From positions 1-24,393 of IMG/VR virus record IMGVR_UViG_3300027586_001229: a stretch of 24,393 bases of DNA; one strand, 5' to 3'. Shown piece after piece: positions 1,728-21,188 of this stretch. The notes beneath the pieces were generated by a model, which did not search any database, had not been told where the DNA came from, and worked only from the letters and a program-made list of their open reading frames with translations. How positions within the stretch are numbered: the first letter of the stretch is position 1; each line of letters begins with the position of its first letter. The translations under genes were made by a program, and so were the position numbers. This DNA is from a virus. Its lineage: Duplodnaviria > Caudoviricetes.

Positions 1728-2801
1728 ATGTCAAAAAATTGGGAAATTTCTGAGCATGAGGTGCCAGAAACATCAATAAAATACTACTCATTGTCCAATT
1801 TTGAGATTTCAGATAACCCAGAACTAGAAACTAAATATATATATGGTAATTCCTTTATAATAGATATTGATGGCTATCAGTATTTTCATTTTTTTCAGGA
1901 TAAAATTGGTCAATACGAATTCTTAAAGAGGTATGTAAAAGATCTTAGGCTTATTCTAGTTGGATCCTGGGATCATGAATATCCACCATCTAGCGCAGGA
2001 ATTGGTAGCATGGTTGTTACAGATGCTCTTTCTATATACAATATAAAAGAAGAAGATAAAATATTTTTAAATAGAGATAGCGCTTGGTTTGAAAAAACAT
2101 TTTATGCTAACAAAATTTTTAATAGATTTTTGCCAGTGGAGGCACCTGGTAATCATTTATTTCAAATATCAAAAGAAGAAAATAAAGAATACTATGCTTA
2201 CAATATTGAGACAGCAAAAATTATAAGAGAACTTTATTTGAACAGAGCAAAAGAAAAAGAAGTAAAAATATTTGTATCAAGAAAAAATATGAGTAATTTA
2301 ATTAGAAAAATGAAATCTTTAATAGATAAAAAAGAATCAGTTGGTCTAAACCTAGAAGAGGAAGACAGTTTAAATAAACAGATGAGAGTCTTTGGTCCTG
2401 AAGATAAAGATGCAATAAAAATAATTAAACAAAGATTCATTACTGAAGAAGATGAAGAGAAACTAGAGTCATTCTTTTTTGATAAAGGGTATAGGATGGT
2501 AGATCCATTTACTCTGACATTTAGTCAGCAAGTAGACCTGTTTACTAGAGTAACACATGTTGCATCTGTTAGAGGCAGCGGACTATACAACACTATATTT
2601 TGCAATCCAGATGTAAAAGTATTTGTCATAGATATAAGCAATGAGTATCATTTTGAATATAGATCTATTATAAATGTTGCAACAGAAAATGTTTATGAGG
2701 TACCAGTTAGATCACCTATAATTGACAGAACACCACAAGAATTGTTTTCTGTAGACAACATCATTAGAGTACTTGAAAACCACTACATAGATAAACTATA
2801 A
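1728..2801 (+). CDS. Glycosyltransferase family 61 (DUF563)-like
   Basis: YFHFFQD, KIFVSR, and LTFSQQVDLF..VTHVASVRGSGLYNTIFC match the GT61 pattern. Confidence 0.8.
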   Translation: MSKNWEISEHEVPETSIKYYSLSNFEISDNPELETKYIYGNSFIIDIDGYQYFHFFQDKIGQYEFLKRYVKDLRLILVGSWDHEYPPSSAGIGSMVVTDALSIYNIKEEDKIFLNRDSAWFEKTFYANKIFNRFLPVEAPGNHLFQISKEENKEYYAYNIETAKIIRELYLNRAKEKEVKIFVSRKNMSNLIRKMKSLIDKKESVGLNLEEEDSLNKQMRVFGPEDKDAIKIIKQRFITEEDEEKLESFFFDKGYRMVDPFTLTFSQQVDLFTRVTHVASVRGSGLYNTIFCNPDVKVFVIDISNEYHFEYRSIINVATENVYEVPVRSPIIDRTPQELFSVDNIIRVLENHYIDKL

Positions 2802-3839
2802 CTATACTACTGAGTTTTTTATTACTGAATCCAGTACAAAGTATTTATCTAAATGCAAACCCTTTGTCTTTGGCATTGCAGAAGACTCGCTAAAACATAT
2901 TTCGTTTACATTCAAATCTCTTGCTTTCAGGTATTTTGTAAATTCGTACCCCCAAAAGTTTTGAGTACTAATTATATTTACAATAGATTTTGGAGCCATA
3001 TAAACTCCAGGAAACATGTTGCTTCCATCCATCCCAGCCAGGTGTGTGGCTTGGCTCATGAGAGAAAACTGTTCAATAAGGTTCATAGATCCCATATTTA
3101 CGACCTTGTACCCATTAGATACAAAATATTTTATTATATCCCTTTCATCATAGACCCTATCAGATTCTTTGTTATCAAAATAGGAATGATCAAATGAGAG
3201 AAACTCAGGATCTTTTTCGTCATATGGCATTCTGCTAGAGTATATCTTTTTAAATTCTGAATTATTTTTTAATGGTAAAAACTTATCTATTATTTTTTGT
3301 ATATATTGAAACCTAATTGGAATAAGTTCTTCGTGAGAGAAATCGAATAGATCTTTTTGTATTGAAAATGGAGTTAGTCTATCGTAGTCCCACATAGATC
3401 TTGTAGGCATAAGTACGACCTCTTCAAACTGAATAGTATCTTCAACCATATCTAGTATTGTGTTTGATTTGTTATACATTCTTTGAACCTCTAAAACAAA
3501 TAGGTTCTTTGGATTCTTTGACTCTCTAAAAAATTGTCCAAAATCTCCATCGTTTGTATCTTTTGCACAAAATACTATGTTTATCTCAGGATCAATAGCC
3601 TTCAAATATTCGTATGTTCCAATAATGTCTACAAGTGTGTGATAGTACTGGCTACATGCTGGAGCAAGAAAAGACTTTCCAGGAACATATATCTTATTTT
3701 TGCCAGAAGTTGGAGATGTTGTGTAATTATGTATGTGAATTATTTTTAGGTTGTCATCTGTTGAGTTTGATAGTGATACAGAATCAAAAGAATACTCTAT
3801 AAAATCCCTATGACCATAATAGTTGCCTTCAAAATCCAT
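2802..3839 (-). CDS. Glycosyltransferase family 61 (DUF563)-like
   Basis: YYHTLVD, KKIYSSR, and MNLIEQFSLMSQATHLAGMDGSNMFPGVYM match the GT61 pattern; paralog of the convergent gene. Confidence 0.8.
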   Translation of the reverse strand: MDFEGNYYGHRDFIEYSFDSVSLSNSTDDNLKIIHIHNYTTSPTSGKNKIYVPGKSFLAPACSQYYHTLVDIIGTYEYLKAIDPEINIVFCAKDTNDGDFGQFFRESKNPKNLFVLEVQRMYNKSNTILDMVEDTIQFEEVVLMPTRSMWDYDRLTPFSIQKDLFDFSHEELIPIRFQYIQKIIDKFLPLKNNSEFKKIYSSRMPYDEKDPEFLSFDHSYFDNKESDRVYDERDIIKYFVSNGYKVVNMGSMNLIEQFSLMSQATHLAGMDGSNMFPGVYMAPKSIVNIISTQNFWGYEFTKYLKARDLNVNEICFSESSAMPKTKGLHLDKYFVLDSVIKNSVV

Positions 3840-3845
3840 ATTTTT

Positions 3846-3854
3846 ATTATATCA
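3846..3854 (-). promoter_or_regulatory. Extended -10 promoter (leaderless)
   Basis: TGATATAAT 6 nt upstream of ATG 3839; no SD. Confidence 0.65.
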
Positions 3855-3889
3855 TATAGTGTATAATTAGAAGGTATCGAAAGGGTTTT

Positions 3890-4990
3890 ATGAATATTGT
3901 TATACCTATGGCAGGCCTTGGTTCCCGCTTCCAAAATGCTGGGGTGCTAACACCAAAGCCACTAATAGTTGTCAATGGTAAAACTCTTATAGAACACTCA
4001 GTAGAATCTTTAGAAATTGAAGGCAGATACATTTTTATTACAAGGATATACGATGATCCACAAGACAATGAAACATTAACATCAATACTAAAAAGATTAA
4101 AGCCCGACTCAATTGAAATACAAATAGACAAGATGCAGTATGGTGCTGCCGATGCCTGCCTGTATGCAAAAGATTATATAAACAATGATGATGAGTTAAT
4201 TATTACAAATTGTGATCAACTTCTATCTTGGAATTCAGAAAATTTTTTATCAGAAATAAGAGACTCTGACTATGATGGTGGAGTTGTACTATTTAAATCA
4301 AAAAATGATAAAAATAGTTTTGCAGAAGTTTCTGCAAATAGGGTCATAAGGATTGCAGAAAAGGATCCGATTAGTGATAATGCCCTTGTTGGTATTCATC
4401 ATTGGAAGCACGGACACGACTTTGTTGTTTCTGCTGAAAGACTACTAAAAGAATACAAAAGTTTTGGACTAAAAGAATGCTATATTTCCAACACATATAA
4501 CTATTTAATTAATGAAGGTAAAAACATACTACCTCATAAAATTGAAAACAATATGTTTATTCCGCTTGGAACACCAGAAGATGTAGAGATCTATCTGGCA
4601 AAGATTAAAGAGTTCTATACTGAAAAACCAAAGACAATATTTTGTGACATAGATGGAACAATAATAAAACATGCTCACAGATTTAGTCATATAGGTAAAG
4701 AGGATCCACAAGAACTTGATGGAGTTATTGCAAAATTTAATGAGTGGGATTCAAAAGGTCATAAAATTATTCTCACAACTGCAAGGAAAGAGTCTGCAAG
4801 GTACATTACCGAAAAGCATCTAAGCGACCTTGGGTTTTGCTGGGACTATTTGCTAATGGGAATAACTAGCGGAACAAGATTTTTAATTAATGATAAACTA
4901 AATAAATCTGATCCAGACAGGGCTGTAGCAATAAGCCTTATTACTGATAAAGGGTTCGTAGATACCGACTGGGAAGGTTTTGGGCTATGA
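3890..4990 (+). CDS. Sugar-phosphate nucleotidyltransferase fused to C-terminal HAD-like phosphatase
   Basis: IVIPMAGLGSRF...PKPLI, NCD, AEKDPIS and LGTPED (NTP_transferase), then TIFCDIDGTI, IILTTAR and INDK (HAD motifs). Confidence 0.9.
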   Translation: MNIVIPMAGLGSRFQNAGVLTPKPLIVVNGKTLIEHSVESLEIEGRYIFITRIYDDPQDNETLTSILKRLKPDSIEIQIDKMQYGAADACLYAKDYINNDDELIITNCDQLLSWNSENFLSEIRDSDYDGGVVLFKSKNDKNSFAEVSANRVIRIAEKDPISDNALVGIHHWKHGHDFVVSAERLLKEYKSFGLKECYISNTYNYLINEGKNILPHKIENNMFIPLGTPEDVEIYLAKIKEFYTEKPKTIFCDIDGTIIKHAHRFSHIGKEDPQELDGVIAKFNEWDSKGHKIILTTARKESARYITEKHLSDLGFCWDYLLMGITSGTRFLINDKLNKSDPDRAVAISLITDKGFVDTDWEGFGL

Positions 4991-5319
4991 AATTATCAAG
5001 AATAGAGGATACTGATCGTGGATGGTTTGTAGGCAATTTTGAAAAAGCAGCATTTCAAACTGATGCCTGCGAAGTTTCCTATAAGTTTCATGTAAAGGGA
5101 GAGCATTGGCCACTGCACTATCAAGAAAAAATAACAGAAATAAATCTTTTAGTGTCTGGAGAAATGATAATACAGGGCCAAAAATTAATTCCTGGAGATA
5201 TTTTTATTATGTATCCATACGAAATTGCTGACCCAGAATTTTTGACTGACTGTGGCATTGTATGTGTTAAATTGCCTGGAATACAAAACGATAAAGTTGT
5301 AGTTGAAAGAATAACATGA
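4987..5319 (+). CDS. Cupin (RmlC-like) domain protein
   Basis: GWFVGNF, HYQ...TEINLLVSGEM and PGDIF..PYE; ATGA-coupled to both neighbours. Confidence 0.75.
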   Translation: MKLSRIEDTDRGWFVGNFEKAAFQTDACEVSYKFHVKGEHWPLHYQEKITEINLLVSGEMIIQGQKLIPGDIFIMYPYEIADPEFLTDCGIVCVKLPGIQNDKVVVERIT

Positions 5320-5783
5320 GAGTAATAGCCCATAGGGGTAATCTAGATGGACCAGATCCAGAAAATGAGAATAAATATTCATATATACAATCATGCCTAG
5401 ACCTAGGCTTTGATGTAGAAATAGATATCTGGTCTATAGATGGACAACTATACCTTGGTCATGACAAGCCACAGTATGCTATTGATAAGCCATCAGTGGC
5501 CTCTGTAGGGCTTAATGGTTGGTTTCATTGTAAGAACCTAGGGGCTTTAGAATACTTTAAAGATAATCTTAATAGTCTTAATTATTTCTGGCATCAATCA
5601 GATGATTATGCTATTACTAGTAATGGATACTTTTGGACATACCCTGGAAAATTAATAGGAGAACAATCAATAATAGTTTTACCAGAGATTATAGAAGCAT
5701 CTGAAGTTGTAAAAATGTTAGCAGCAAAACCGTATGGTGTATGTACTGATTATCCAAAACAATATAGAAAAGCAGGCCACTAG
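5316..5783 (+). CDS. GDPD/PLC-like phosphodiesterase-fold protein
   Basis: IAHRG, EN, DVEIDIW, LGHD and GVCTD motifs. Confidence 0.8.
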   Translation: MRVIAHRGNLDGPDPENENKYSYIQSCLDLGFDVEIDIWSIDGQLYLGHDKPQYAIDKPSVASVGLNGWFHCKNLGALEYFKDNLNSLNYFWHQSDDYAITSNGYFWTYPGKLIGEQSIIVLPEIIEASEVVKMLAAKPYGVCTDYPKQYRKAGH

Positions 5784-17092: not shown

Positions 17093-17748
17093 TACTCAAA
17101 CTCTTTTCTTATTTTATCTAACTGGTCATCTGTTACACTAAAACTAATGCAGAACATTGGTGAACCAATATCAATAATACCATACCGATGATCCTGCATA
17201 TGCTTTCCTTCTTTTTTTATATTAAAGTTTATAAAAGGTGTGTCAACATACATTTCTTTATCCTCTGGTGGGCTAAAATTTTTGTAAGATTCTTCAACAA
17301 TGAATGGTGAAAACTCATCATTTGTATTAGTTATTCTAATATCTGAAGAGAATCCTATTATCCAAGGCATATAAAATCTATATGTAGCAAGGAAACATTC
17401 ATCATTGCTTATTTGTTGTGGTGACGGATAAAATTGTCTTTGATGACATTTGTCTAAGGCATACAAGGACCCATCCTGTCTTGGCCTTACCCATATCTCT
17501 GCGTGTGTTTTTTGAACAATTGTTACAATATTATTATTTATTGAAACAAGTTCTGGCTTTGGATAAAGGTTAGAGACATATCTATTAATGGGCTTTACTA
17601 ACATTGATTTGTATTTAGGTTCTAGTAGATCATATCTCGCCCACTTCTGTGGCACAAAAGATTGTTCTTCTAGTTCAGGGAAAGAAAGATTTTCTGAATC
17701 AACCCAAAATTCAGAACCCTCTATATAGTTTTTTGTTTTCAAACCCAT
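17092..17748 (-). CDS. Hypothetical protein (possible diverged paralog of 16352-17092)
   Basis: 218 aa ORF; FYMPW..SPF..INFNIKK..IDIGSPMF pattern. Confidence 0.7.
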   Translation of the reverse strand: MGLKTKNYIEGSEFWVDSENLSFPELEEQSFVPQKWARYDLLEPKYKSMLVKPINRYVSNLYPKPELVSINNNIVTIVQKTHAEIWVRPRQDGSLYALDKCHQRQFYPSPQQISNDECFLATYRFYMPWIIGFSSDIRITNTNDEFSPFIVEESYKNFSPPEDKEMYVDTPFINFNIKKEGKHMQDHRYGIIDIGSPMFCISFSVTDDQLDKIRKEFE

Positions 17749-17749
17749 G

Positions 17750-19171
17750 CTATCTTACAATCTTTGTGTTGTAGGCTTTTTCCCATTCAAGAATATCATT
17801 CTCATCATTTAGCAATGGCTGTCCCTTAATGTTTAGGCTTGTATTCAAAAGTATTGGCACACCAGTTTGTAGATAGAATTTATTTAAAACTCTATATAAG
17901 CCATAGTGATCTTCCTTCGTTACTGTCTGAACTCTAGAAGTTCCATCGGCGTGGACTACAGAAGGTATTTTTTCTGGCTGTAAACATTTTACTGTGTACT
18001 GCATATATGGACTTGCAAAATCCATATCAAACCATTTGTGAGCGTGATCTGCTAAAACTATAGGAGCAAATGGCCTAAACAATTCTCTTTGTTTAATTAA
18101 ATTAACCTTGTCTTTGATGGCTGGATCTCTTGGGTCTGCAAGAATAGATCTATTTCCAAGTGCTCTTGGACCATATTCTGCTCTACCTGTTGCTACTGCT
18201 ACTATGCCATCTTTTAATATACCGTCCACAATTTGCTGAACAGGATACTCTCCTCCAAGATCGTAGCCAAGATAAGGAGTCTTCCAATCAAGATGCTTTC
18301 CGTATAGGGCTGCTGCTGCGCCTAAAGAACTGCCAGCATCTCCTGGGTTTGGCATGATCCAAATCATATCAAATATATTCCACAGCAGTGTATTTGCGGA
18401 TGAGTTTAGTGCACATCCACCCATGAATACTAAATTATTTTTGCCAGTTAAACTTTTTGCCATACGCATGAATTGATTTAGCCTTTGCTCGTATACCATT
18501 TGTACTGCTGCTGCTATATCAAATTTATCTTGTTCTGAAATCCAACCCCAGTCAGTTATTCCTTTATGAAAGTTATATTTTTGATTATCGTATGAGGGGA
18601 AATATTCGTTAACTTTTTTATAGTGCTTTGTCCAGTCTCCGTATGCAGCCATACCCATCATAATGTATTCTTCTTGGTTGGGCATAAGTCCAATCAATTG
18701 AGTAAAGGCTGAATAGAATAATCCAAAACTAACTGGATAGTTCTGCTTATATTTTAGTTTAATGTTGTTGCCTTCTCCAACCCAAACTGTAGAAGTATTG
18801 TATTCTCCCATTGCATCCAAAACAACAATTACTGCATTGTTAAAATCACTTGTAAAGTATCCTGCTGCTGCATGTGAATAGTGATGGCTGAATGATTTTC
18901 TAGGAATTCCTGGTATATTAAATCTAGGTTTCCATTCTCCTGCACCACCCTTTAGAGCCAGTCTAGAGGCCTTTAGAAGGGGTTTTTCATAGTAAGCAAT
19001 ATGATCTGGTCTACCATACTGTAGGGCATCTTTTACTAAACTATCATTCACATACCAATCATTTTTTTGCTTACTATATCTTTCTGCATGCCCCGCAAAA
19101 AGTATATCCCCGTCCTTAATTAAAGAAACAGATGCGTCGTGAGATGTTTCATTTACTCCCAGTATTATCAT
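17750..19171 (-). CDS. Carbamoyltransferase (NodU/CmcH/TobZ family)
   Basis: HDAS, HHYSHAA, MGMAAYG, GGCALN, PGDAG, EYGPRALGNRSIL, RELFRPFAP, HADGTSRVQTV and LNTSLN motifs. Confidence 0.96.
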   Translation of the reverse strand: MIILGVNETSHDASVSLIKDGDILFAGHAERYSKQKNDWYVNDSLVKDALQYGRPDHIAYYEKPLLKASRLALKGGAGEWKPRFNIPGIPRKSFSHHYSHAAAGYFTSDFNNAVIVVLDAMGEYNTSTVWVGEGNNIKLKYKQNYPVSFGLFYSAFTQLIGLMPNQEEYIMMGMAAYGDWTKHYKKVNEYFPSYDNQKYNFHKGITDWGWISEQDKFDIAAAVQMVYEQRLNQFMRMAKSLTGKNNLVFMGGCALNSSANTLLWNIFDMIWIMPNPGDAGSSLGAAAALYGKHLDWKTPYLGYDLGGEYPVQQIVDGILKDGIVAVATGRAEYGPRALGNRSILADPRDPAIKDKVNLIKQRELFRPFAPIVLADHAHKWFDMDFASPYMQYTVKCLQPEKIPSVVHADGTSRVQTVTKEDHYGLYRVLNKFYLQTGVPILLNTSLNIKGQPLLNDENDILEWEKAYNTKIVR

Positions 19172-19251
19172 TAATATATAAACTTTCTAGGTTTCTTCAT
19201 CATTTTTTTAATCTTATACATAATTATCATTTTTTTTATTTTTTTAATCAT
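19171..19251 (-). CDS. Lys-rich 26 aa peptide ending FIY
   Basis: MIKKIKKMIIMYKIKKMMKKPRKFIY; ATGA overlap with the upstream SGNH gene and TAATG overlap with the carbamoyltransferase. Confidence 0.8.
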   Translation of the reverse strand: MIKKIKKMIIMYKIKKMMKKPRKFIY

Positions 19252-20099
19252 TTTGTCTCCACATATTTACTATACATAAAGTCTGACCAAAAATCATGGA
19301 ATGATGTTCCTGGATGAATTTCGTCTGATGCAACCAAAGAGTACTTTTTATCTTGCTTCTTTTTTGCTTTATCATAATTATATATAGACTCTATCATTTT
19401 TTCTTCGCTATAGATATTGTATGATTTAAAGTTTTTTAACAACTCATCAAGTATATTTACCTCATTTTTATTAAGTTGATCTCCCCAGTCTGCTCTTAGT
19501 TGTTTTGTTCCAGGATAGAACTTTTCTTTTTTCTCTGGTAGCATTTCACTTCCAATAAGAGTTGCATCTTTATACCATGTTGTTGTTATTAATTCTATAT
19601 TGTTTGAATAGCAATATTGCTCTAAGTAAAAATAGCATCTATATATTAATGTATTTAAACTATCAATGCAACCATCTTGAGCATACTTAGAGTCTCTCCA
19701 AGGGTCTGGAAGCATTAAAAATATTGTCTTTGGATTTCCATATTCACTACAGTACCTAAAAATTTGATCAATGCATTCTGTAACGCTCATTCCAGATGCT
19801 GCCACATTATAATATCCACCTATATTATTATCTTTAAATATTTTTGAATATAGTTTTTTTGGCCAAGATTCATCATGATCTAATGATTCACCAGCAGTAA
19901 TTGAACAACCAGCAAAAAGTATTTTATTTTTATTTAATTCATCTTTAAAGTTATCAGAATTGTTAACAAATTCACGCAGTCCTGGAGAAAGAGCAATCCG
20001 TAAGTACCTATCTCTACCAGTTTTAGATATTCCATAAGGGTGGTCATCGTTAAACATTGATGTGCCAACTTGCGCTTTAGTCTCTATATTGTTTGTCAA
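19248..20099 (-). CDS. SGNH/GDSL-fold protein
   Basis: FAGCSITAG (Ser), YNVAASG and SDEIHPG (DxxH); TTG start in a TTGA overlap. Confidence 0.8.
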   Translation of the reverse strand: MTNNIETKAQVGTSMFNDDHPYGISKTGRDRYLRIALSPGLREFVNNSDNFKDELNKNKILFAGCSITAGESLDHDESWPKKLYSKIFKDNNIGGYYNVAASGMSVTECIDQIFRYCSEYGNPKTIFLMLPDPWRDSKYAQDGCIDSLNTLIYRCYFYLEQYCYSNNIELITTTWYKDATLIGSEMLPEKKEKFYPGTKQLRADWGDQLNKNEVNILDELLKNFKSYNIYSEEKMIESIYNYDKAKKKQDKKYSLVASDEIHPGTSFHDFWSDFMYSKYVETK

Positions 20100-20173
20100 T
20101 ATACATACTTCTTTCTCTTAAGTCTTTTCTTGTTTCTTTTTTTCCATAAATAGAATTTAATCTTTGATATCAT
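20096..20173 (-). CDS. Lys/Arg-rich 25 aa peptide ending YVY
   Basis: MISKIKFYLWKKRNKKRLKRKKYVY; TAATG overlap upstream and TTGA overlap downstream. Confidence 0.8.
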   Translation of the reverse strand: MISKIKFYLWKKRNKKRLKRKKYVY

Positions 20174-21096
20174 TATATCATACCTAATTCTTTTGATATT
20201 TCATAAATATTTTTTGCAAAAGACATTTGGCCAACAAGTCCGTAGTGTTGTTCATCTGCTGCATCAAAAAGAAACTCTCGACCTGTGTGGGGCTCAACTT
20301 CTAATTCATAGTCCAGACGATGCAAGAACTGTGGATTTCCATCAGAGTCATATATTGGTATGAAGTTTTTTAATTTTAATTTAGAGACTAGATAAGATGT
20401 TGGTGCATCCCAACTTGTCATAAATAAAGATATATTGTTTATAGTACAATAATATGATAACCTTTGAATAGATCTGACATACTCTAAAAGAAAGTCGTGT
20501 AGATCTGTCTGATTTGCAGAATGTTTTTCTTTATTGTCTGAGAAAATAGTTCTAAATGATTTAGATTGGCTATCCCAAGACTTCATTCGTCCATAGTCTG
20601 GCAATAAAACATATACAGTGTTTGGATTTCCAAAGGTATTGCAGTAGGTAATTATGTTATCTACTATATGGTCTGCTCCTTGACCAGGATATCCTAAAGA
20701 ATTAAAGGGTCCAATGTTTGAGTATATGCTCTCTAATTTTTTATACAGATGGTTATCCCAGGTGTATCCTTCTGGGAGTGCCTCTCCAAATGTTGCAGAG
20801 CATCCAGCAAATAAAATATTTGTTTTATTTTTATCAAGGGGATTAAACTCTTCACACCTGTGGCCGTGGCTATTTAGTTTATAATATATTTTGTGCCCTT
20901 TGTAAACAGACATACAAGAATACTCTTCTAGGTCTGAAGGATCTACTCTTGCTCCTAAATATATTATTGTGTTTCCTTCTACTTTTTCATAAGAAGGGTC
21001 TATCTCTGCAGCATTTATATAATTATCAAAAAAATTATTTGATATATTTTTTATAGATGACCTATCTTTTATTAAAAAGCCAATTTCTTCTATCAT
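20173..21096 (-). CDS. SGNH/GDSL-fold protein
   Basis: YKLNSHGHR, FAGCSATFG, NSLGYPG and ADEQHYG. Confidence 0.8.
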   Translation of the reverse strand: MIEEIGFLIKDRSSIKNISNNFFDNYINAAEIDPSYEKVEGNTIIYLGARVDPSDLEEYSCMSVYKGHKIYYKLNSHGHRCEEFNPLDKNKTNILFAGCSATFGEALPEGYTWDNHLYKKLESIYSNIGPFNSLGYPGQGADHIVDNIITYCNTFGNPNTVYVLLPDYGRMKSWDSQSKSFRTIFSDNKEKHSANQTDLHDFLLEYVRSIQRLSYYCTINNISLFMTSWDAPTSYLVSKLKLKNFIPIYDSDGNPQFLHRLDYELEVEPHTGREFLFDAADEQHYGLVGQMSFAKNIYEISKELGMI

Positions 21097-21102
21097 ATTA
21101 CA

Positions 21103-21111
21103 ATTATACCA
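21103..21111 (-). promoter_or_regulatory. Extended -10 promoter (leaderless) heading the SGNH/carbamoyltransferase operon
   Basis: TGGTATAAT 6 nt upstream of ATG 21096. Confidence 0.7.
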
Positions 21112-21115
21112 TTTG

Positions 21116-21188
21116 CTGGGGTGGCAGGCATCGATCCTGCGACATCCGAATTAACAGTTCGGCACTCTACCATCTGAGTTACACCCCA
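21116..21188 (-). tRNA. tRNA-Asn (GTT)
   Basis: Acceptor stem TGGGGTG/CACCCCA with discriminator G; D arm ACTC/GAGT; anticodon arm CCGAA-CTGTTAA-TTCGG; T arm GCAGG-ATCGATG-CCTGC. Confidence 0.93.

Follow-up and report, generated by a model that had tools for sequence, protein, structure and literature searches.

Tyrosine-ended microproteins beside a phage carbamoyltransferase: a candidate carbamoyl relay without a membrane

What do two very short, unannotated reading frames do when they alternate with two SGNH-like genes ahead of a carbamoyltransferase gene? This arrangement occurs in the virus record IMGVR_UViG_3300027586_001229 (Duplodnaviria; Caudoviricetes), whose 24,393 bases are the whole of its own assembly and are referred to here as the window. 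The initial annotation proposed that the carbamoyltransferase (CT) loads a carbamoyl group onto the terminal tyrosine of each encoded peptide, and that each SGNH protein passes it to its own acceptor. Comparison with viral and bacterial loci partly supported this interpretation: conservation of the peptides and their Tyr, the catalytic residues, and fusions of CT with GDSL domains and of the peptide tail with SGNH-like proteins all favoured it, whereas its repeated [SGNH + peptide] unit was not upheld. Whatever the mechanism, the Tyr-ended microproteins are, judged from their sequences, a real gene family that has been missed.

The five minus-strand open reading frames (ORFs) of the cassette (SGNH, peptide, SGNH, peptide, CT; Table 1) and their four overlapping junctions (TAATG, TTGA, ATGA and TAATG) were as first described. 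The two peptides are alike in size (25 and 26 amino acids), charge (+12 and +11) and aromatic-aliphatic-Tyr end (YVY and FIY), and neither was given a name by Pfam, PHROGs or NCBIfam. To place them among relatives, the best 80 of 573 viral loci from a CT-anchored scan were analysed (83–91% identity; 58 distinct CT proteins), and basic, short, intergenic ORFs were gathered without requiring Tyr. Forty-six of the 89 distinct ORFs obtained ended in Tyr, all as [F/Y/D][I/T/L]Y, compared to 13/519 long ORFs of the same loci, none of which (0/519) ended in [FY]xY. The residue before the final Tyr was Ile (37), Thr (8) or Leu (1), and the one before that Tyr (28), Phe (17) or Asp (1). The Tyr itself was written with either codon (TAC 26, TAT 20) and followed by any of the three stops (TAA 40, TGA 4, TAG 2). 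Across 47 aligned peptides (25–31 amino acids, net charge +7 to +12, no hydrophobic segment) the final Tyr was the sole invariant column. As Phe is common two positions upstream (17/46) and never final, the Tyr hydroxyl seems to be what matters.

A stop-anchored search located a basic (F/Y)(I/T)Y-stop peptide near CT on the same strand in 68/80 loci, with at least two peptides at 8/80, and none on the opposite strand. Peptide and SGNH occurred together in 54 loci, peptide alone in 14, SGNH alone in 5 and neither in 7 (Fisher p 0.011, the loci not being independent). Two relatives, L081 and L082, had the exact arrangement of the window; compared to L081, peptide 1 differed by seven synonymous and four conservative codon changes, and peptide 2 by four synonymous and no amino-acid changes. 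The excess of Tyr ends, the varied codons for Tyr and stop, and the recurrence on one strand confirm that the unannotated peptide ORFs are real, and both the ORFs and their terminal Tyr were conserved in near and distant phage clades. The lack of a transmembrane helix and of an xxF tail was likewise confirmed: the peptides end at Tyr, and maximum KD17 values were 0.09 and −1.15 in the window and ≤1.25 across all 47. No membrane binding is claimed, because the amphipathic-helix signal (0.56) was not above that of shuffled sequences (0.52 ± 0.16). A scan of genome contigs gave three short contigs from metagenome-assembled genomes, which look like binned phage.

A second form of the peptide was apparent in more distant phages. 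Scans from two CTs with 47–53% identity to that of the window (P0007 and P0003) gave 97 loci (the best 80 of 407, and 17/17), and 88 of these carried a frame ending in D-P-(F/Y)-(I/T)-Y plus at most one residue, again with no opposite-strand occurrence. In 41 aligned DPFIY members the Asp, Pro and Tyr were invariant and the N-terminal part ranged from basic to acidic, so the tail and not the charge is the conserved part. The window group and the DPFIY group are linked by position and motif, the profile match between them being weak. In the cultured Ralstonia phage RsoM2USA, three SGNH-like genes, an unannotated 36-residue DPFIYK peptide and CT stand in one row; the DUF6071 family of these genes appears to be SGNH-like. 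A tblastn search with a DPFIY peptide found nothing in isolated phages, though RsoM2USA has one, the query being too short. Twelve isolate CT loci, drawn from 60 of 144 records, were examined, and among these twelve both partners were present only in RsoM2USA; the other 11 had no peptide or SGNH within 3–4 kb and fell outside the short-CT clade (support 85 in a quick version of the CT tree, discounting rows L127, L130, L132 and L140, which held the wrong ORF). In Xanthomonas phage Xp15 (L230), CT adjoins thymidylate synthase and dCMP deaminase genes, as in the 5-hydroxymethylcytosine (5hmC) carbamoylation system.

The assignment of the enzyme to the NodU/CmcH carbamoyltransferases was borne out by Pfam (Carbam_trans_N, 114.6 bits; Carbam_trans_C, 180.1 bits; both above cut-off) and by PHROG 1601. 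Profile matches included GdmN (full length, E 8e-52) and NovN-type and TobZ structures. For GdmN, a general-base His and four iron ligands, with direct transfer to the final hydroxyl, are described in PMC9633730; H11, H96, H100, D119 and D278 of the phage CT align with GdmN H27, H133, H137, D156 and D333, and this His and the His-His-Asp-Asp ligands were kept in 74–78 of 78 rows. The phage CT thus shares full-length homology, catalytic His and iron ligands with TobZ, GdmN, NovN and NodU. However, it is ~100 residues shorter than TobZ/GdmN, lacks their dimerisation domain and is tied to peptide and SGNH genes, whereas the known enzymes of the family carbamoylate their final substrate without intermediaries.

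For the SGNH label the support was indirect. The two cassette proteins had no Pfam or NCBIfam match and no significant PHROGs match, and a direct family assignment therefore failed. Over blocks I–II, a profile of 69 homologues nevertheless aligned with GDSL enzymes of solved structure, G-C-S falling on their GDS (best E 7.9e-5), and Lipase_GDSL_2 matched 4/69. An Atlas model of SGNH2 (predicted local distance difference test, pLDDT, 0.56) matched Lipase_GDSL clusters at template-modelling scores of 0.52–0.54 by query and 0.67–0.71 by target, and matched DUF6071 clusters as well. Gly and Ser of the block I G-C-S were present in 69/69 homologues, as was D259 of the block V D-x-x-H, with H262 in 68/69. 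Going by their sequences, we class the window proteins as SGNH-like and not as canonical SGNH/GDSL members, since the block III Asn is absent. None of the three in the window has a hydrophobic segment, so the system looks cytoplasmic. The third paralogue has 30% identity to SGNH2, occupies an equivalent position in L081 and is a possible further client of the relay. SGNH genes occurred in all five large contigs (1–4 matches each), including two complete genomes with a peptide alone beside CT. In L114, a second peptide precedes an SGNH gene ~45 kb from CT, beside a sugar-nucleotide epimerase. An SGNH-anchored scan (three-row alignment) covered 15 loci, with SGNH genes far from CT barely sampled. 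Within the same close phage group, mean pairwise identity was 85% for 23 CTs versus 25% for the 69 SGNH-like proteins, which would fit specificity residing in the latter.

Gene order around the peptides was fluid. For 55 distinct peptides the next gene was SGNH in 25 and CT in 24 (49/55 together), and 22/55 followed an SGNH gene. Peptide similarity tracked the downstream SGNH more closely (rho 0.52, n = 25) than the upstream one (rho 0.28, n = 22), though linkage alone could give either, and a Mantel test found no correlation between peptide and downstream CT (rho 0.09, p 0.2). These counts and correlations do not establish the twice-repeated [SGNH + peptide] unit first proposed, and we do not insist on it. 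Of the ten closest relatives of peptide 1, eight lie ahead of SGNH; those of peptide 2 are mostly found between SGNH and CT. Two loci (L006:3095-3258 and L025:2322-2509) have two different tandem peptides ahead of SGNH, as if a peptide–SGNH cassette had been inserted between peptide and CT.

Fusions were also observed. Thirteen long CT homologues of 150 listed were scanned, and a C-terminal GDSL domain was found in two and an SxtJ domain in one. A DPFIY-profile search of longer proteins gave 56 matches among 7,999 scored candidates, with the motif ≤3 residues from the C-terminus in 46; two of the 56 were SGNH-like proteins with a DPFIY tail, including P0201 (12-sequence cluster). A portable C-terminal tail fits a trans-acting carrier and, equally, a docking tag. 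Two further candidate fusions were rejected: the GFIY ending of P0025, a singleton CT, sits at the normal last strand, and P0174 looks like read-through of two genes.

How does this compare with known systems? PMC12148441 describes acetyl-Tyr on the PatA FXYXXF motif and its transfer to PatB, summarises DltX and does not mention carbamoyl. It also reports that free O-acetyl-Tyr alone donates to PatB, so the chemistry does not call for the xxF tail. With the Dlt/Pat shuttles, the phage locus shares a microprotein or tail with aromatic-aliphatic-Tyr and an SGNH protein with a Ser-Asp-His triad. In contrast to them, the loader here would be a TobZ-type CT, the group carbamoyl and not acyl, and the carrier is without a transmembrane helix; the SGNH block III Asn is replaced by P-x-x-x-R. 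Only the first half of FXYXXF is present, the window group ending at Tyr ([F/Y][I/T/L/V]Y-stop) and the distant group one residue after it. No MBOAT protein occurred among the 32 window proteins or 38 neighbour-family representatives, whole genomes not having been searched for one. The balance tips for us towards a system that works like the DltX/PatA Tyr shuttle; with no MBOAT found, no FXYXXF and no membrane anchor, it is not a member of that family.

A second comparison is with saxitoxin-type loci, where, according to PMC2684587 and PMC2679770, sxtI is a carbamoyltransferase, sxtJ and sxtK have unknown function and sxtL is a GDSL lipase; PMC10157211 notes sxtJ, K and L-like genes in another cluster. 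Four of 15 listed bacterial plasmid CT loci were opened, and all four encoded a 49–69-residue membrane peptide ending in APFIYTLF. Three of these peptides were annotated as DUF5989 with an SxtJ-family neighbour, and one locus had an annotated SGNH gene. An unannotated 49-residue DUF5989-like ORF with this ending (L232:3842-3991) lies directly ahead of a plasmid CT. The PFIYTLF ending given for SxtK in the initial annotation was thus found at these four bacterial plasmid loci. SxtI–SxtJ–SxtK(–SxtL) loci and the phage loci both place CT beside a small protein with PFIY near its end, with an SGNH gene in some, and CT–SxtJ and CT–GDSL fusions exist. They differ in that DUF5989 has a transmembrane helix (maximum KD17 2.8–3.3) and a TLF tail and the phage peptides neither. 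PF19451 (DUF5989) matched none of 47 peptides and was above cut-off in 0/2 complete related phages, and the SxtJ family had no match among the neighbour families scanned in phage loci. The bacterial membrane peptide fits the FXYXXF acyl shuttle. A literature search found no papers on DUF5989 and no publication on a carbamoyl-tyrosine carrier or these phage peptides (mostly open-access literature, supplements not covered).

From these analogies, we lean towards a relay in which CT carbamoylates the peptide Tyr and the group then travels, by way of the divergent SGNH paralogues, to acceptors in the cytoplasm that are probably glycans. CT would form carbamoyl-AMP from carbamoyl phosphate and ATP, a step established for the family and for which the catalytic residues are present. 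Its Kae1-like domain would then carbamoylate the hydroxyl of the last Tyr to give an aryl carbamate, and the charged tail would, as in PatB/DltD, carbamoylate the Ser of the SGNH-like protein, where the triad is present. Finally, each paralogue would deliver carbamoyl to its own cytoplasmic acceptor. The Tyr-to-Ser step is plausible, since serine hydrolases are readily carbamoylated by aryl carbamates; the Ser-to-acceptor step is the doubtful one, since the turnover of carbamoyl-enzymes is usually slow. The block III Asn-to-Arg change may, speculatively, be an adaptation. The neighbouring genes (oxygenases, glycosyltransferases and sugar-nucleotide enzymes in close relatives, radical-SAM enzymes in distant ones) point to a phage-made glycan or hydroxylated protein, and the group would most likely end on a glycoconjugate made by the phage, at a sugar or a hydroxylated residue. 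Among the three acceptors first proposed, a 5hmC-type DNA base is disfavoured (see below) and an extracellular host polymer would be difficult to access, as the proteins have no signal or membrane segments. With one conserved loader, a generic carrier and variable deliverers, decoration could be changed by swapping small peptide–SGNH cassettes.

Several observations weigh against this relay. The CTs characterised so far place carbamoyl directly on the final hydroxyl (PMC9633730 and PMC8670742), and the absence of a membrane to cross removes the known purpose of such a relay. In the SGNH-like proteins the block II Gly (G103), typical of hydrolases (PMC12148441), was kept in 65/69, and there was no conserved block III Asn but instead P131 (63/69), D/E/N132 and R135 (68/69); SxtL, a comparable GDSL protein, is proposed as a decarbamoylase in PMC2684587 and PMC2679770. 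Sequence links between the peptide groups were weak: the profile match of the window group to the DPFIY group reached 39% probability, and a reverse DUF5989 search gave the DPFIY group no better than a weak match (E 0.004 at best, four targets) and the window group none. The DPFIY tail was also fused to unrelated proteins, namely 11 aldolase-like PF08013 proteins (P0191 and ten similar), and occurred as an in-frame C-terminal tail on radical-SAM-like and HAD-like proteins (L158:10-792, L162:43-864, L130:3112-3495). The CTs that come with a peptide group together in a single clade (support 85, quick tree), bringing their co-occurrence near to a single evolutionary event. Finally, 12/80 close loci had no peptide within 4 kb, seven of these also having no SGNH; among the 12, L009, L012, L015 and L035 have <2.3 kb upstream and L040 <0.9 kb. 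Three contigs of 44–54 kb had CT and SGNH and no peptide detectable by a profile that is insensitive, having missed the known peptides of G007 and G009. In five peptide-less contigs a DNA tail pattern was at chance level (5 matches versus 9 in the control), and four opened stretches of such contigs contained no peptide.

What else could the peptide be? One possibility, which we rate as unlikely, is that it binds non-covalently as an accessory subunit or docking tag, an activator or adaptor with its aromatic C-terminus in a pocket of CT or SGNH, while CT hands carbamoyl directly to either the SGNH Ser or the acceptor. The co-occurrence and fusion data apply to it just as well, the tail on unrelated enzymes suits a recruiting tag, and such a partner could replace the ~100 residues of TobZ/GdmN absent from the short CT. 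A tag would, however, be expected to end in Phe sometimes, whereas the last aromatic was Tyr in 47/47 and 41/41 peptides while the upstream aromatic alternates, and the bacterial counterpart matches a proven acyl-shuttle motif.

A little less probable again is direct transfer by CT, with the SGNH-like proteins acting as hydrolases (decarbamoylases or esterases) and the peptide regulating or inhibiting one of them. Neither a near-invariant CT beside several very divergent SGNH paralogues nor the CT–GDSL fusions sit well with this, and the invariant Tyr is left unexplained; yet characterised CTs as a rule transfer directly, SxtL is a proposed decarbamoylase, the block II Gly is retained and 7/80 loci have neither partner nearby.

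We consider it highly improbable that the cassette modifies DNA bases. A phage-encoded member of the same CT family does so: the 5hmC carbamoyltransferase is a 63 kDa enzyme that acts alone in vitro with ATP and carbamoyl phosphate and has a thymidylate-synthase homologue as partner (PMC8670742), and 2OG-Fe(II) oxygenase genes lie downstream of the window CT. Thymidylate synthase (PF00303), however, was found in 0/5 large related contigs (four complete; control positive in 10/14 genomes), the window record itself being only 24 kb. The Xp15 CT beside thymidylate synthase has no peptide or SGNH and falls outside the clade. Least probable, and largely refuted, is the view that the micro-ORFs, which are short, A-rich, fill intergenic gaps and have no exact sequence in the protein collection, are spacer or translational-coupling frames with an irrelevant product, given the synonymous excess versus L081 (11 to 4 codons), the codon-independent Tyr, the invariant D-P-x-x-Y in distant phages, the in-frame C-terminal fusions and the lack of opposite-strand matches.

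Returning to the relay, we give even odds to its most specific form: a membrane-free carbamoyl relay of aquatic phages in which a bare C-terminal Tyr on a free 25-residue peptide, charged by a TobZ-type enzyme as an aryl carbamate, feeds swappable SGNH-like transferases with Arg for Asn.

Table 1 Features of the cassette and its surroundings in the window, and the peptide of a cultured phage
Feature	Position	Strand	Remarks
tRNA-Asn(GTT)	21115..21188	-	ARAGORN; directly upstream of cassette
Candidate extended -10-like site TGGTATAAT, putative leaderless promoter	21103..21111	-	6 bases ahead of SGNH1 ATG
SGNH-like protein 1, 307 amino acids	20173..21096	-	GCS block I, block II Gly, P-D-x-x-R replacing block III Asn, D-x-x-H
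Second -10-like site TGATATAAT	20172..20180	-	Overlaps SGNH1 stop and peptide 1 start; identical letters in relative L081
Peptide 1, 25 amino acids	20096..20173	-	Net charge +12; C-terminus KYVY-stop
SGNH-like protein 2, 283 amino acids	19248..20099	-	TTG start; S66, G103, P131/R135, D259, H262
Peptide 2, 26 amino acids	19171..19251	-	Net charge +11; C-terminus KFIY-stop; stop overlaps CT start
NodU/CmcH/TobZ-family O-carbamoyltransferase (CT), 473 amino acids	17750..19171	-	Short form
Third SGNH-like paralogue, 295 amino acids	22446..23333	-	No adjacent peptide
DPFIYK peptide of RsoM2USA, 36 amino acids	L118:3038-3148		Between SGNH-like (DUF6071) genes, ahead of CT

The cassette was first described as lying behind one promoter. 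A single dedicated promoter is not demonstrated, because a tRNA-Asn gene lies upstream, a second -10-like site is present and the gene run carries on gap-free past CT, with the next ORF starting at 17748; the -10-like motif has six matches within the window versus 2.5 expected. The run right after CT (17748-12745, minus strand) encodes unknown proteins, a DUF6065-like/phrog_7084 protein, a 280-residue protein with a D-x-E motif and a weak resemblance to a GT60-type neighbour, and 2OG-Fe(II) oxygenase-like products, and its genes are candidate makers of the acceptor. Support for a GT60 assignment of ORF 15660-14818 was weak (33 residues, E 0.008). Directly ahead of the tRNA-Asn gene, 22265-21192 (minus strand) encodes a trypsin-like protease that begins with a hydrophobic stretch near its N-terminus and has a basic tail at its C-terminus.

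Window proteins with named domains comprise WhiB, GT61 glycosyltransferases, a nucleotidyltransferase, 2OG-Fe(II) oxygenases, a CHAP protein and an APS-kinase-like protein. A second sugar-modification block (1728-5783) holds two convergent GT61 glycosyltransferase genes, a nucleotidyltransferase–HAD fusion and two unnamed ORFs. The product of 11276-10515 (minus strand) combines an APS-kinase-like domain with a C-terminal domain bearing an RYQPWHEGH motif, which we take to be nucleotidyltransferase-like. Close relatives of the window were IMG/VR contigs, the complete ones being 109–119 kb. WhiB suggests, at the level of inference from sequence, an actinobacterial host, and we presume a freshwater, lake-type habitat for this type of phage.

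The system is small and soluble, so three proteins and a synthetic peptide suffice for testing. If the relay is true, the acyl-tyrosine shuttle would gain a new chemistry (carbamoyl-Tyr), a new loader and membrane-free cytoplasmic operation; bacterial DUF5989/SxtK would be its membrane-bound form, and the GDSL neighbours would be transferases and not hydrolases. It would also supply a function for a very common, unannotated family of phage microproteins and for the DUF5989/SxtK and SxtJ genes, so far unexplained, and would account for the pairing, in hundreds of aquatic phages, of one conserved CT with several fast-changing SGNH-like genes.

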